From a virus (taxonomy: Duplodnaviria; Caudoviricetes): DNA of 64,000 nt. How positions within the stretch are numbered: position 1 is the stretch's first letter; each line of letters starts with the position of its first letter. The notes beneath the pieces were generated by a model. It saw nothing but the letters and a program-made list of their open reading frames with translations. It was not told where the DNA came from and ran no database searches. Made by a program: the position numbers and the translations under genes. The stretch spans positions 1-64,000 of the IMG/VR virus record IMGVR_UViG_3300032030_000007. The stretch is one strand, 5' to 3'. Positions 49,194-58,642 of the stretch are shown one piece after another.

Positions 49194-49199
49194 AAATTG

Positions 49200-49582
49200 T
49201 GGACCCAGACAGATTCGAACTGTCGTCTTAATAACCGTCATACTAAAACTTGTTACATGCTTCTTAGAAGTTTCTATCTTCAAAATATCTAGTTTCGTAC
49301 TATTCCAGAAAACCAGAAAACTTGGAGGTACACTTGAATTGAATAGCCAAAAGCTCCTTCCGCTATGTTTGTGAGACTTCTGTTGCCCGACCCGTAGGTT
49401 CTCACTGCGCCGGCTATGCTTATTTATAACCTAACTAATTAAAATAGTATCCCTGAGGGATTAAGCAGCCATCCTGTAGAAAGTATCTTCTTCAGCATTT
49501 ATTGTTTTTGATTCTTTAACGACATAATCAAGTCGACATGATTTTAATACTCAAATTACTAATCAAATACCAAAATGAGCCC
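49200..49582 (-). ncRNA. ssrA: tmRNA (383 nt), tag (A)AEEDTFYRMAA*
   Basis: Acceptor GGGCTCA/TGGGTCC-A with G3.U70; T arm GACAG-TTCGAAT-CTGTC; tag ORF 49496-49461 after AATAAAT ending in AA-stop. Confidence 0.9.
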
Positions 49583-50449
49583 TTATTTAAATAAAATTTT
49601 TCTTCCTTTTTTCCACCCTAAATTAATATAGTAATCTAAATTTTCTTTTTTAATTTTTTTATTAATTTTTTCTTCTAAATTATAAATCCAACATGTATTA
49701 AGTTGATTATTTGTTTTTCTATTTTTTGCAGCTATACTTAATTTTTGTTTATGTTCTTCAGAATGTTTGCGTCCTTTATGATAAGGTATAAATTCTCCAT
49801 TAATAATTAAAGGATCATCTTTATATAACATTTTAACGTTATTATAATTATCTTTATGCTTACATAATATTTTTCCTTTATTAAAAAATAATAATTCACC
49901 AGATATATATCTAGGATCATCTTTATTTACATAGAATTTATTTCCATTTTTATCAATAACACAAACTTTATTTTCAAATTGTTTTTTTAATTCACCAGTC
50001 TCAAATCTTTTATCATTATTTTTTACTAAATAATGATTATTATTTTTATCAACCGCTGGTGTTAATCCATAAGATAATGTTCGATATTCACCAGATATAT
50101 ATCTAGGATCATCTTTAGCCATTAAAATTTGTTCACCAGTAATTGTATTTCTAACAGGAAATAAACCAACTGTTTTTATACCACCTCCACCTAGTACTTC
50201 ATTATAACAATTATTATCCTTTATTAAAACTTCATTTACAATATCTTCTTCATAGTTTAAAGCTTCTTCTCTTGAATTAAAATATTTTAAAATTTCTTTA
50301 GAAAAATTTGAAATTCCATATTTTTTATAAGCTCTATGTAAACGATGACCAGAACCCATATATCCATCATTTAAATTATTAGTAGAATGAATTCCATAAT
50401 AAAAATGATTATTAATTAAATTTATAATTTTATAAAAATAATGATACAT
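49583..50449 (-). mobile_element. Free-standing GIY-YIG (Seg-like) homing endonuclease with NUMOD3-like motif
   Basis: YFYKIINLINNHFYYGIHST..DGYMGSG; KDDPRYISGE repeats; KGRKHSEEHKQKLS. Confidence 0.88.
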
Positions 50450-55405: not shown

Positions 55406-55506
55406 ATCTTTATATTTTATTTGTTTGATAATTTAATATAGATCATTATCAAAAAAATTCAAATATAATAAAAAAATGGAACTATAAATTAATCTAATTC
55501 TATTTG

Positions 55507-55577
55507 TAATCCCAATAGGAATCAAACCTATACCTATTCTTTAGGGGAGAATTATGCATTCATTACACCATAGGATC
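55507..55577 (-). tRNA. tRNA-Arg(CCT), somewhat degenerate
   Basis: GATCCTA/TGGGATT acceptor; ATTCT-CCCCTAA-AGAAT; T loop TTTGATT; C33 instead of U33. Confidence 0.65.
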
Positions 55578-55947
55578 ATACATCACCTCTTAATTTCAAT
55601 GTATTATATAACTCTTCGATATGATCAAATAAAGTTTTGTAATATCTTCCATAAGTAGTTTTCCAAAACCCATCTTTATCATATTCGTATCTTGTTATAT
55701 ATTCATAAAGATTTTCTCCTTTATTCAACAAATCATAATAATACTTAATATCTTTTATAGTCCAATATAGCATATCATAATTTCCGTGTTCTATTGGACG
55801 ATCCCACCCTTCAGTATGAAATAACAAAATATGTAAAGCATTTCTATATTTGTAAATACCACCACGTTGAATACCAAATTTTTTGCAATTACGATTTTTT
55901 GGTATTTTATTCCAACCAAATTTTCGTTTGTCTTTTAATGCTTTCAT
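55576..55947 (-). CDS. Hypothetical protein inside the tRNA array
   Basis: ORF. Confidence 0.6.
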   Translation of the reverse strand: MKALKDKRKFGWNKIPKNRNCKKFGIQRGGIYKYRNALHILLFHTEGWDRPIEHGNYDMLYWTIKDIKYYYDLLNKGENLYEYITRYEYDKDGFWKTTYGRYYKTLFDHIEELYNTLKLRGDV

Positions 55948-55971
55948 AAATTGAATATTTAAATATTTACG

Positions 55972-56054
55972 AGCTTATACTGAGAATCGAACTCAGATCT
56001 CCACCCAAGATGGTGTTCTCCATCGTCTGTGATTTACCATTAAACTATATAAGC
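55972..56054 (-). ncRNA. tRNA-like RNA with elongated non-canonical anticodon arm
   Basis: GCTTATA/TATAAGC acceptor, D and T arms intact; GATGG-AGAACA-CCATC in place of a normal anticodon arm. Confidence 0.7.
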
Positions 56055-56059
56055 ATATG

Positions 56060-56241
56060 TAGGGATGATGGGATTCGAACCCACGCTATGTTTAAGGTGG
56101 TACATAAAACGCGCTTCCTTACTCGAGTTTCACCTCTTTTCAGTGCTTCCGCAAACTTAACTCCTGGATTTCTCCTTCAAGACATTTTCCACCACGACAC
56201 TCGTTTTATCGCGCTCTGTCCAAGTTCTGAGCTACATCCCT
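56060..56241 (-). ncRNA. 182-nt tRNA-like RNA with ~105-nt insertion replacing the anticodon loop
   Basis: AGGGATG/CATCCCT-A, GCTC..GAGC D arm, GTGGG-TTCGAAT-CCCAT; insertion closed by ATAAAACG/CGTTTTAT. Confidence 0.75.
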
Positions 56242-56250
56242 ATATATAAG

Positions 56251-56326
56251 TGACCGCAGAGGGATTCGAACCCCCGACTTCTTCGTTCGTAGCGAAGTGC
56301 TCTAAAATCCACTGAACTATGCGGCC
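56251..56326 (-). tRNA. tRNA-Arg(ACG)
   Basis: Full cloverleaf; CTTCG-CTACGAA-CGAAG. Confidence 0.92.
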
Positions 56327-56333
56327 AATAATG

Positions 56334-56408
56334 TACTCCGGATGGGACTCCAACCCATGACCTGAATATTAGAAGTATCCTGCTCTATTGCAACTGAGCT
56401 ACCGGAGC
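56334..56408 (-). tRNA. tRNA-Arg(TCT)
   Basis: Full cloverleaf; GGATA-CTTCTAA-TATTC. Confidence 0.88.
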
Positions 56409-56415
56409 ATAATTG

Positions 56416-56491
56416 TGACCCTGGAGGGATTCGAACCCCCAACCTGAAGGGTAGAAGCCAACTGTTCTAAATTCCGTTGAACTACAGGGCC
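56416..56491 (-). tRNA. tRNA-Arg(TCT), anticodon stem with two U.U mismatches
   Basis: GTTGG-CTTCTAC-CCTTC; intact acceptor, D and T arms. Confidence 0.8.
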
Positions 56492-56635
56492 AAATGCGGC
56501 TACGCAATTTATTTTTACAAGGAGCCGTAACCTATCTCCTCAACCTTTATCCTTTGGCATCTGCAATTGCATTGTACACTACAATATACAAATAAAGCTT
56601 TAATTGAGAACCTTGCAAGTAACCTAATCAAGCAT

Positions 56636-56698
56636 TCAGTGGATTCGAACCAGCATCCCCTCTAACGGGAGGTATTTTACCCTTAAACTATCGTAGTC
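56636..56698 (-). pseudogene. tRNA core remnant lacking the adjacent 3' acceptor strand
   Basis: TAGTTTAAGGGTAAAA, CCTC-CCGTTA-GAGG, TGG-TTCGAAT-CCA. Confidence 0.5.
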
Positions 56699-56718
56699 TT
56701 TTTCGGCATCCTCAATTG

Positions 56719-56790
56719 TACCCCCGGTAGGATTCGAACCCACATCTTATGATCCGTAGTCACACGTTCTTTCCTTTGAACTACGGGGGT
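56719..56790 (-). tRNA. tRNA-Arg(ACG)
   Basis: Full cloverleaf; TGTGA-CTACGGA-TCATA. Confidence 0.92.
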
Positions 56791-56894
56791 ATATATACAT
56801 ACTCATCTATATAATGATCACTCTATAGAATTTTACAGTTGGCCATCTCACAGTCCGCATATATAATTTATATAACTCGTATATTTTATGATTG

Positions 56895-56968
56895 CACCTG
56901 CATCCTCATTGAAATTACTGCCACTCCTGACAGAAGGGATTCGAACCCATATCCTCCTAACTTGTAGT
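56895..56968 (-). ncRNA. Circularly permuted tRNA-like element (YrlA Y-RNA-like order)
   Basis: T arm GGG-TTCGAAT-CCC, then closed hairpin CTGTCA-GGAG-TGGCAG, then TA plus a D-like arm. Confidence 0.4.
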
Positions 56969-56980
56969 ATGTATTATATA

Positions 56981-57583
56981 TTAAAATCCAATTCTAACTG
57001 ATTTAAATTCTTCTTCAGTTGTTAATTCTTTATAAGTTCCATTTCCATATTCAATATAACCAAAGTTCTTATACAAATTATCTTTTACATCATCGTTATA
57101 CCATTCATACATATCTTTCAGAGGTGGCATTTCCAATAGATGCTTAAGATTATGTTTTTGAATACACCAGCCATCATATATTAACTTTGTATAAATATTT
57201 AATTTCCATTTTTCATTTGACATAAACCATGCAGATTTTGGCCAATTCCCGTTAACATACATATCGTACATTGAATCTAAGCGTTTTAAATAAATCCAAA
57301 AACGACAGAATAGCCAATGACATAATTCTTCTCTAACTTTTGCTGACCAATAATCTTTATCTCCAGGTCCTACACCAATAATAAATGTTGGATTAGATTG
57401 TGTATATGTTGATCTACTAGATATAAATACTCCACATGCATATTCTTGTTTTTCAATCCATGCCCATATATGTCTATTACCACCATTCTTATTGCCATCA
57501 ATACGAAGTTTCTTAATCTTTATATTTGCTTCCTTCATAAATGGAAGGTTATTTATCTGTTCAATTACTTGTTCCTTTGTCAT
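56981..57583 (-). CDS. Hypothetical protein
   Basis: ORF. Confidence 0.7.
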   Translation of the reverse strand: MTKEQVIEQINNLPFMKEANIKIKKLRIDGNKNGGNRHIWAWIEKQEYACGVFISSRSTYTQSNPTFIIGVGPGDKDYWSAKVREELCHWLFCRFWIYLKRLDSMYDMYVNGNWPKSAWFMSNEKWKLNIYTKLIYDGWCIQKHNLKHLLEMPPLKDMYEWYNDDVKDNLYKNFGYIEYGNGTYKELTTEEEFKSVRIGF

Positions 57584-57697
57584 AATCTCTTTATTTTATT
57601 CATTTGAAATTACAACTTGAAATTTTTCCAAGAGGCCACCACCTAATTTATAATTTCAGGAAACTTTTACTTACGATACTTATCTGGTCCCATATCT

Positions 57698-57931
57698 TTA
57701 TGCAATTATTTCAATAAACTCATAAGAATCATCAGACTCATCAAATGTTCCACAATTATTATACTGTTCAATATATGCATTCTTTACATATACTGTATCA
57801 TCCTGACCGTAACAATCTTGTTCCATATATCCTTTCACATGAACTTCAACTGACATATTATCATTTAGTCCATTATTTGAAAGTTCCTCGAGTCTATTAA
57901 TAAACTCACGTAATGTCATCCAATCTTTCAT
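57698..57931 (-). CDS. Hypothetical acidic protein
   Basis: ORF. Confidence 0.6.
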   Translation of the reverse strand: MKDWMTLREFINRLEELSNNGLNDNMSVEVHVKGYMEQDCYGQDDTVYVKNAYIEQYNNCGTFDESDDSYEFIEIIA

Positions 57932-57934
57932 AAT

Positions 57935-58159
57935 CTAAAATAAAATATCAAATAAATCGTAACCTAACTCATACTCATCATCATAAGCAGATATTTGAAG
58001 TTTTGCTTTCAGTTTCTCCTCATTGTCATAAATCTCAATATATCTTCCATTATCACCAAGATGACAGAAAATAATACCAAAACCAAAAATAAACTGATTA
58101 CCTGGTTGGAGATTCAAAACTTCTCTTAACTTACTTAATGTATCTGAACTAAAACTCAT
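57935..58159 (-). CDS. Hypothetical protein
   Basis: ORF, TAG stop. Confidence 0.6.
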   Translation of the reverse strand: MSFSSDTLSKLREVLNLQPGNQFIFGFGIIFCHLGDNGRYIEIYDNEEKLKAKLQISAYDDEYELGYDLFDILF

Positions 58160-58222
58160 ATTTTATATAATTTAAATATTATATAAATAATATAGATTAC
58201 TTTATAAAAAATTCAATAAATC

Positions 58223-58309
58223 AAAGAACAAAAATAGCAGAAATTCGTATGTGAACTCCTGCTATTCAAATATGCATTACTGTTTAGTTTATATCTTTAA
58301 GTTCACATA
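58223..58309 (-). promoter_or_regulatory. Transcription attenuator: antiterminator/terminator pair
   Basis: Terminator 14-bp stem 58266-58253/58246-58233 plus U-tract; alternative 10-bp helix TATGTGAACT (58309-58300) with AGTTCACATA (58257-58248). Confidence 0.8.
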
Positions 58310-58374
58310 ACAATTTTGTAGAATCGTCTAACTCTACGTCTATTGTCTATATTTATGTAAACTATGTTTTTCAT
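58303..58374 (-). CDS. Arg-rich attenuator leader peptide MKNIVYINIDNRRRVRRFYKIVM
   Basis: Codons AGA CGT AGA GTT AGA CGA; the stop codon lies within the antiterminator arm. Confidence 0.8.
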   Translation of the reverse strand: MKNIVYINIDNRRRVRRFYKIVM

Positions 58375-58444
58375 ATTTAATTTGTATTTGTTTATATTTA
58401 GTCTAAATTTATAATTTATAATAAAACTTTAAATATTTGTATAT

Positions 58445-58642
58445 TTAAAATTTAGATATATTTTTAATTTTTTTCAATAAATCCCAAATTATTTTCAATG
58501 GCCAAAAAACAATACAGCATAATAATAAAAATGATAATATTGGATTATCATTTCTTTCTATTTCATGTCTGTATTTTTTTACAAACCAATATACGGTTAA
58601 CGTAATCCCTATAATGTAATAAATAAGGGCACATATACTCAT
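58445..58642 (-). CDS. Small membrane protein
   Basis: Two TM segments, FWP motif. Confidence 0.6.
   Translation of the reverse strand: MSICALIYYIIGITLTVYWFVKKYRHEIERNDNPILSFLLLCCIVFWPLKIIWDLLKKIKNISKF

Follow-up and report, generated by a model that had tools for sequence, protein, structure and literature searches.

The leader ORF and the tRNA-Arg array

The window analyzed here is the whole 64,000-nucleotide stretch of viral DNA corresponding to positions 1 to 64,000 of IMG/VR record IMGVR_UViG_3300032030_000007, and is part of a 254.6-kb contig of a jumbo phage with 27% GC and translation code 11. All of its features described below are on the minus strand. Between positions 58374 and 55506, a small open reading frame (ORF) rich in Arg codons, an intrinsic terminator, three further ORFs, and an array of tRNA-Arg genes follow one another, and this arrangement was examined as a candidate leader-peptide attenuator of phage tRNA genes. 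The leader ORF (58303-58374) consists of 23 codons and starts in an A-rich context without a Shine-Dalgarno sequence. Codon counting and comparison placed the control codons at 58324-58341, where codons 12 to 17 read AGA CGT AGA GTT AGA CGA, five Arg codons in six ending with AGA-CGA. A sequence-only reading of this DNA had pointed out the ORF, which was unannotated, and its cluster proved to be unique among the 824 small ATG-initiated ORFs of the window. The binomial chance of such a cluster is approximately 4e-6 at the Arg content of the phage (3.2%).

Folding of the leader region (z = -5.0) yielded a long hairpin around the Arg codons and a terminator. The protector hairpin (1:2), which encloses the Arg codons, was mapped to 58300-58363 by folding and alignment, and the intrinsic terminator hairpin (3:4) with the start of its U-tract was mapped to 58232-58267 by folding. 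The terminator has a free energy of about -18 kcal/mol, and its U-tract is imperfect. The antiterminator arm (segment 2, 58300-58309) includes the leader stop codon and is perfectly complementary over 10 bp to 58248-58257 inside the terminator, a match that was equaled by none of 2000 shuffled sequences. The mutually exclusive helices and the 14-nt distance between the last Arg codon and the antiterminator arm, both claimed in the earlier reading, were confirmed.

The tRNA search identified five canonical tRNA-Arg genes at 55506-56790: tRNA-Arg(ACG) at 56718-56790 and 56250-56326, tRNA-Arg(TCT) at 56415-56491 (with a weak anticodon stem) and 56333-56408, and tRNA-Arg(CCT), with C at position 33, at 55506-55577. 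The ACG anticodon works as ICG. The leader Arg codons are the set decoded by the ACG, TCT, and CCT tRNAs; the earlier reading had noted that four of the genes (TCT or ACG) match the control codons. CGG is absent from the leaders and tRNA-CCG from the arrays; as CGG is in any case a rare codon, this joint absence carries little weight.

Conservation and types of the leader

Approximately 55 loci were gathered from related phages using the 200-amino acid (aa) ORF (56981-57583) as the anchor for comparison. The contigs of the related jumbo phages reach 484 kb and, judging from the record names, probably originate from cow and sheep rumen metagenomes. In 21 of the loci, a small ORF rich in Arg and, after it, a terminator lie 0.5-1.3 kb upstream of the 200-aa gene. 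These leaders fall into four types with the Arg cores RRRVRR (type 1; the window, L042, L056, and L092), RR(N/D/E)RR (type 2; L053, L063, and others), RRRTWT (type 3; L062 and L076), and RRRTWI (type 4; L068, whose contig ends before any tRNA could be visible). The segment pairing with the terminator has its own sequence and its own position in each type; in type 1 it is invariant. The four types were at first taken as unrelated, and this was dropped: motifs are common to types 1 and 2 and to types 3 and 4, which therefore represent diverged forms and not four independent origins. The leader type is discordant with the tree of the adjacent 200-aa gene (L053, L063, and L075 versus L062 and L076), indicating frequent recombination within the cassette. 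The leader and terminator are conserved in relatives with the same switch geometry.

Among 16 distinct leaders, the reading frame was intact in every case, and insertions and deletions were located only outside the ORF. AGA-CGA was kept in all 16, even though CGA is rare (9% of the phage Arg codons). The Arg positions vary synonymously (CGT/CGC and AGA/AGG), and the codons in between swap amino acids (N/D/E/K). The Arg codons are therefore what is conserved, as the earlier reading had proposed to verify.

No close relative of the window was found in INPHARED, where the matches were only to generic tRNAs, and scans of IMG/VR with single proteins found nothing. The type 1 and type 2 leader patterns were not found in IMG/VR, and no bacterial copy of the type 1 pattern was found in GTDB genomes. 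The search with the type 3 pattern returned an already-known contig as its sole match, and a 15-mer scan of viral contigs gave 41 matches, which are probably due to chance.

Computed response to ribosome position

A ribosome footprint was blocked codon by codon on a transcript ending before the terminator 3' arm, and the transcript was folded under this constraint. In each of the four types, the antiterminator had a probability of 0.75-0.97 while the ribosome occupied the Arg codons, and this fell to 0.00 once it stood at the stop codon, so the fold check proposed earlier gave the computed behavior of a stall-sensitive switch. The antiterminator collapsed at codons 19-21 in type 1 (last Arg codon, 17), 14-16 in type 2 (13), and 13-14 in type 3 (11), and more loosely at codons 17-20 in type 4 (12). 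The switch point is thus located 0-3 codons past the last Arg codon in types 1 to 3. In addition, the antiterminator duplex energies were better than those of shuffled sequences (p = 0.002, 0.008, 0.046, and 0.0025). The antiterminator of type 2 is about 25 bp long and, while the ribosome occupies codons 10-12, remains competitive at equilibrium. A ribosome on the Arg codons makes the terminator lose even at full equilibrium in type 3 and in two of the three type 2 leaders tested.

Linkage of the leader with tRNA-Arg genes

Both traits could be scored in 38 loci, of which 19 carried the leader together with a tRNA-Arg array and 19 carried neither; no locus was discordant. The leader and the array each changed six times on the tree, and four of four independent pairs were concordant. 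In L047 to L050, the internal promoter described below, a homolog of the 74-aa ORF, and the 200-aa gene are kept, whereas only a plain terminator is present, without leader or tRNAs. The presence of the leader therefore follows that of the tRNAs rather than that of the ORFs. Across the relatives, the anticodon arms of the array tRNAs occur in 13 ACG, 14 TCT, and 8 CCT variants.

The relative G001 provides an internal control, in that it contains a second small ORF and a terminator (L088, 4953-5116) ahead of a block of non-Arg tRNA genes (Gln, Thr, Cys, Asp, Leu, Tyr, Lys, Val, Met/Ile, and Ala). The first 22 codons of this ORF use only the amino acids of that block, with Ile assumed to be read by the CAT tRNA, and include no Arg codon. 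Footprint folding of this second leader gave no sharp switch, and its codon match is what supports it. The suggestion that analogous leaders precede other tRNA clusters is therefore backed by codon usage but not by folding. BoxA-like motifs were also observed after promoters near this second leader. Elsewhere in L088 (6880-7185 and 7899-8255), there are a tRNA-Tyr gene with an apparent group I intron and other tRNA genes with insertions.

Promoters and a boxA-like element

A canonical copy of the phage promoter was found by motif match at 58187-58216, downstream of the terminator. The promoter pattern has 14 minus-strand matches in the window, about 13 of them intergenic, and no plus-strand match. 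Upstream of the leader, a degenerate copy of TTGAA-N16/17-CTATATT at 58448-58477 is a candidate promoter, and it is followed by a TTATTAT-type motif at 58416-58425. Most relatives of types 1 and 2 have a degenerate copy in a comparable position. The geometry of the motif resembles the -33/-7 promoter of Bacteroidota with altered 3' bases, and the motif may imply a phage sigma factor.

A boxA-like element with the core GTTCTTTGA, missed in the earlier reading, is located at 58221-58229 between the U-tract and the start site of the internal promoter. By position, it would be carried only on read-through RNA and be absent from internal-promoter transcripts. The core has three occurrences in the whole window and is present after the terminator in types 1, 2, and 4. 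The same 9-nt core is found 48-220 nt before the 23S rRNA gene in Bacteroidota spacers, thus matching an rrn spacer element of a phylum that is itself only the probable host phylum. A longer boxA motif, taken from the tRNA region of G001, matched almost exclusively Bacteroidota, and 37 of 81 matches were located at the same distance (48-220 nt) before 23S rRNA, where the spacer boxA lies. The gammaproteobacterial boxA consensus is also similar to the phage element (PMC5725501). Based on the starts without a Shine-Dalgarno sequence, the promoter geometry, and the boxA match, the phage host probably belongs to Bacteroidota.

Proposed mechanism

The leader ORF, the Arg cluster, the exclusive helices, the computed stall geometry, and the linkage with the array are results of sequence comparison and computation, and the element is very probably a real, conserved Arg-codon attenuator. 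It is also likely, although with less certainty, that this attenuator materially controls tRNA-Arg output by sensing the speed of decoding at the Arg codons. In the proposed mechanism, transcription would begin approximately 65 nt ahead of the leader, which would be translated by a ribosome coupled to the RNA polymerase. When the Arg codons are read fast, the ribosome would reach the stop codon and cover segment 2, and the terminator would form. When charged tRNA-Arg (ICG or UCU) is short, be it through nuclease attack, starvation, or competition, the ribosome would wait on codons 12-17, segment 2 would capture the 5' arm and loop of the terminator, and the polymerase would read through. There is a reasonable possibility, a little short of an even chance, that the read-through polymerase then transcribes boxA, loads an rRNA-type Nus complex, and crosses the tRNA block, which is not translated. 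RNA started at the internal promoter, without boxA, would mainly serve the three ORFs or provide a basal or early level of tRNA. The new tRNAs would restore Arg decoding and close a negative feedback loop. Only tentatively can the system be extended to an inducible counter-defence, in which the leader would sense the loss of host tRNA-Arg and the boxA/Nus-modified polymerase alone would transcribe the redundant tRNA-Arg variants together with the tRNA-Arg(ACG)-like RNAs as possible decoys; we regard this extension as rather doubtful.

Evidence against the attenuator and alternative interpretations

Several observations weigh against control of the array by the attenuator. The canonical internal promoter is found 15-45 nt past the terminator in essentially every leader locus, and no intrinsic terminator was found between the attenuator and the last tRNA in any locus. 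The latter removes a strong downstream terminator as an objection to read-through, and the former substantiates the caveat, already raised in the earlier reading, that a downstream promoter could transcribe the array independently. Taken together, they mean that the array is not formally dependent on read-through; the attenuator adds to array expression and is not its sole gate. The upstream promoter is degenerate and putative. The terminator of type 1 wins at full equilibrium (0.92-0.98) whatever the ribosome position, its 8-9 bp lower stem remaining unoccupied, and the type 4 terminator likewise always wins; switching in these types must therefore be kinetic. Type 3 lacks boxA, and the boxA hand-off cannot apply to it.

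Of the comparative evidence, the independent-pairs test was not significant (p = 0.125) because there were only four independent pairs, and joint gain and loss can reflect a cassette that moves as a whole. L098, which was found via another anchor, carries tRNA-Arg(TCT) and tRNA-Arg(CCT) without a leader and is the one exception found to the linkage between leader and tRNA-Arg. Within-family covariation was weak, being reached in 31 of 500 shuffles for type 1 and absent for type 2; the stems vary too little for it to be significant. The helices expected to covary are nonetheless maintained: 99% of the cells of the type 1 protector stem are paired, with one-sided pairing-preserving changes at six pairs and a two-sided change at one. 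In summary of this balance, conservation, geometry, the codon-anticodon match, and joint presence and absence support the attenuator, whereas the strictly on-demand expression proposed earlier is doubtful in view of the downstream promoter.

The alternative that survives best, which we nevertheless consider unlikely, is that a real Arg attenuator contributes little output or acts on the intervening ORFs, with the internal promoter mainly driving the array. The position of that promoter and the absence of a terminator before the tRNAs fit this interpretation, and the presence of the 74-aa ORF in 15 of the 21 leader loci favors the ORFs as the target. However, the ORFs vary between loci and occur without the leader (the 200-aa gene in 19 loci), leaving tRNA-Arg as the one constant partner, and the confinement of boxA to read-through RNA argues against the internal promoter as the main driver of the array.

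It is improbable that the leader senses general stalling at an R-x-R ("+X+") motif, or a metabolite via its nascent peptide, instead of the supply of tRNA-Arg. The "+X+" motif, known from ermDL/msr leaders, stands for arrest by macrolides or a need for ABCF factors. R-x-R is present in all four leader types, and ligand-sensing leaders containing Arg exist, as in speF orf34 (PMC6386406). On the other hand, the features of nascent-peptide sensors such as speFL and ermCL/ermDL are missing from the phage leaders, whose peptides diverge except for Arg and which precede tRNA-Arg genes and no resistance gene. The rare CGA codon is never lost, Lys replaces Arg only once and at the most upstream position (L092), and the second leader of G001 matches a different tRNA set; all of this weighs against the alternative.

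Still less probable is a stand-alone small transcript that encodes a peptide or small RNA (sRNA), ends at an ordinary terminator, and is carried along with the tRNA cassette, its complementarity being due to symmetric folding. The leader unit does have its own promoter and terminator with a new promoter starting right after, and the dominance of the terminator at equilibrium in types 1 and 4 would suit such a unit. Against this, segment 2 complements the terminator in four types of differing sequence, the long type 2 antiterminator is competitive even at equilibrium, and the switch boundary tracks the last Arg codon. A chance arrangement in AT-rich intergenic DNA is practically negligible, having been refuted by the shuffle and folding null tests and the conservation in 21 loci.

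Comparison with known systems

E. coli trpL and pheL are leader-peptide attenuators of the type considered here. The Salmonella hisL leader likewise combines a short leader ORF in which control codons follow one another, the protector, antiterminator, and terminator helices, and a readout of decoding speed, and a ribosome at the stop codon favors termination there as well (PMC4046918). The phage locus shares the clustered control codons, the terminator, the exclusive antiterminator, the computed stall/stop geometry, and the match between codons and cargo. It differs from hisL and trpL in being phage-encoded and Arg-specific, in having tRNA genes for the control codons as cargo instead of biosynthetic enzymes, and in the internal promoter and boxA-like element past the terminator. 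Since it has neither a biosynthetic or synthetase cargo nor sole dependence on read-through, the element is placed outside the strict family of biosynthetic-operon attenuators. The trp/his geometry recognized earlier thus applies to the structure of the switch but not to its cargo or promoter arrangement.

In the Salmonella speF leader, consecutive Arg codons of orf34/speFL also report arginine supply by ribosome pausing (PMC6386406). That leader differs in acting through Rho, sequestration of the ribosome-binding site, and RNase G without an intrinsic terminator/antiterminator, and in controlling ornithine decarboxylase. T-box riboswitches also couple termination to tRNA status, but they bind uncharged tRNA directly without leader translation (PMC7778990). 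No Rfam T-box match was obtained in the phage leader region at E values up to 10. A T-box would need intact uncharged tRNA, whereas the leader may also report tRNA that has been destroyed. Antitermination of rRNA transcription by boxA and Nus factors resembles the phage arrangement in having a boxA-type core upstream of long untranslated RNA (PMC5725501); the phage boxA differs in lying right behind an attenuator terminator and being transcribed only on read-through. The phage core is a putative NusB/NusE site that would suppress Rho termination.

Phage tRNAs have been described as replacements for host tRNAs cut by anticodon nucleases, in a system that likewise contains redundant isoacceptors with divergent anticodon arms; its subject is tRNA sequence, and a term search of the text gave no passage on phage tRNA expression being controlled by feedback (PMC10264068). 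A literature search, whose coverage excluded most subscription papers, turned up no paper in which tRNA genes are attenuated or a phage element of this kind is described, and within that coverage the statement in the earlier reading that no phage attenuator of tRNA genes had been described held up. Attenuation of the trp/his type is itself known; what appears to be new, no paper having been found, is trp-type attenuation of tRNA genes, and in a phage. The present analysis contributes the single-amino-acid leader, the four leader types, the presence/absence linkage, and the position of boxA.

For more than 50 years, the presence of tRNA genes in phages has lacked an agreed explanation (PMC10264068). 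If the tRNAs compensate for codon usage, constitutive expression is expected; if they replace depleted tRNAs, their expression should be induced once decoding fails. A phage sensor dedicated to a single tRNA species speaks for replacement and makes this view directly testable. The element would extend classical attenuation to tRNA genes and viruses, and its single-amino-acid leader is easier to dissect than multivalent leaders. The element also hints that rumen Bacteroidota may possess a defence directed at tRNA-Arg, and it suggests a hand-off from attenuator to boxA, of which no description was found in the literature.

Other RNAs and ORFs of the region

The earlier description of the array as all-Arg holds for the five canonical tRNAs, but non-canonical tRNA-like RNAs are also present. 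One (56059-56242) is a tRNA-Arg(ACG)-like RNA with an invariant AA-ACG-A loop and an approximately 105-nt structured insert in the variable arm. Its acceptor, D, and T arms are intact, the 7-nt ACG-centered loop lacks U33, and the anticodon stem covaries. This RNA was found in 12 loci (L042, L053, L062, L098, and others), always within Arg arrays, and is a possible decoy or unusual tRNA-Arg. The L098 array (930-2330 in a 484-kb phage) consists of tRNA-Gln, tRNA-Leu, tRNA-Arg(TCT), the insert-bearing RNA, and tRNA-Arg(CCT), with no canonical ACG tRNA. Another tRNA-like RNA (55972-56054; 46.7 bits), present in three loci, has a 6-nt non-canonical anticodon loop. Intron-mode "Ser" calls by ARAGORN for two odd RNAs were rejected as unreliable.

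A conserved element at 56495-56560, found in 18 loci and only with Arg arrays, consists of a hairpin, an A-rich linker, and a 7-bp loop-tail complement (possibly an H-type pseudoknot), and ends at the 5' end of the adjacent tRNA. It has no Rfam match and could be a processing element or a ribozyme. Two more array RNAs at 56790-56975 (three loci) and 56600-56712 (13 loci) share a T-loop-like motif and long closing stems. Rfam contained no family for the leader or for the odd array RNAs.

The ORFs between the attenuator and the array encode products of 74 aa (57935-58159), 77 aa (57698-57931), and 200 aa, for which searches gave no family match. The 74-aa and 77-aa ORFs share a 90% cluster; the 74-aa ORF occurs also without the leader, and the 200-aa ORF is seen with and without leader and tRNAs. 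A GC-rich conserved hairpin at 57610-57690, upstream of ORF starts in 11 loci with and without tRNA arrays, is possibly a translational operator. Farther along the window (49199-50449), a tmRNA gene is located directly downstream of a 288-aa ORF resembling a GIY-YIG homing endonuclease.

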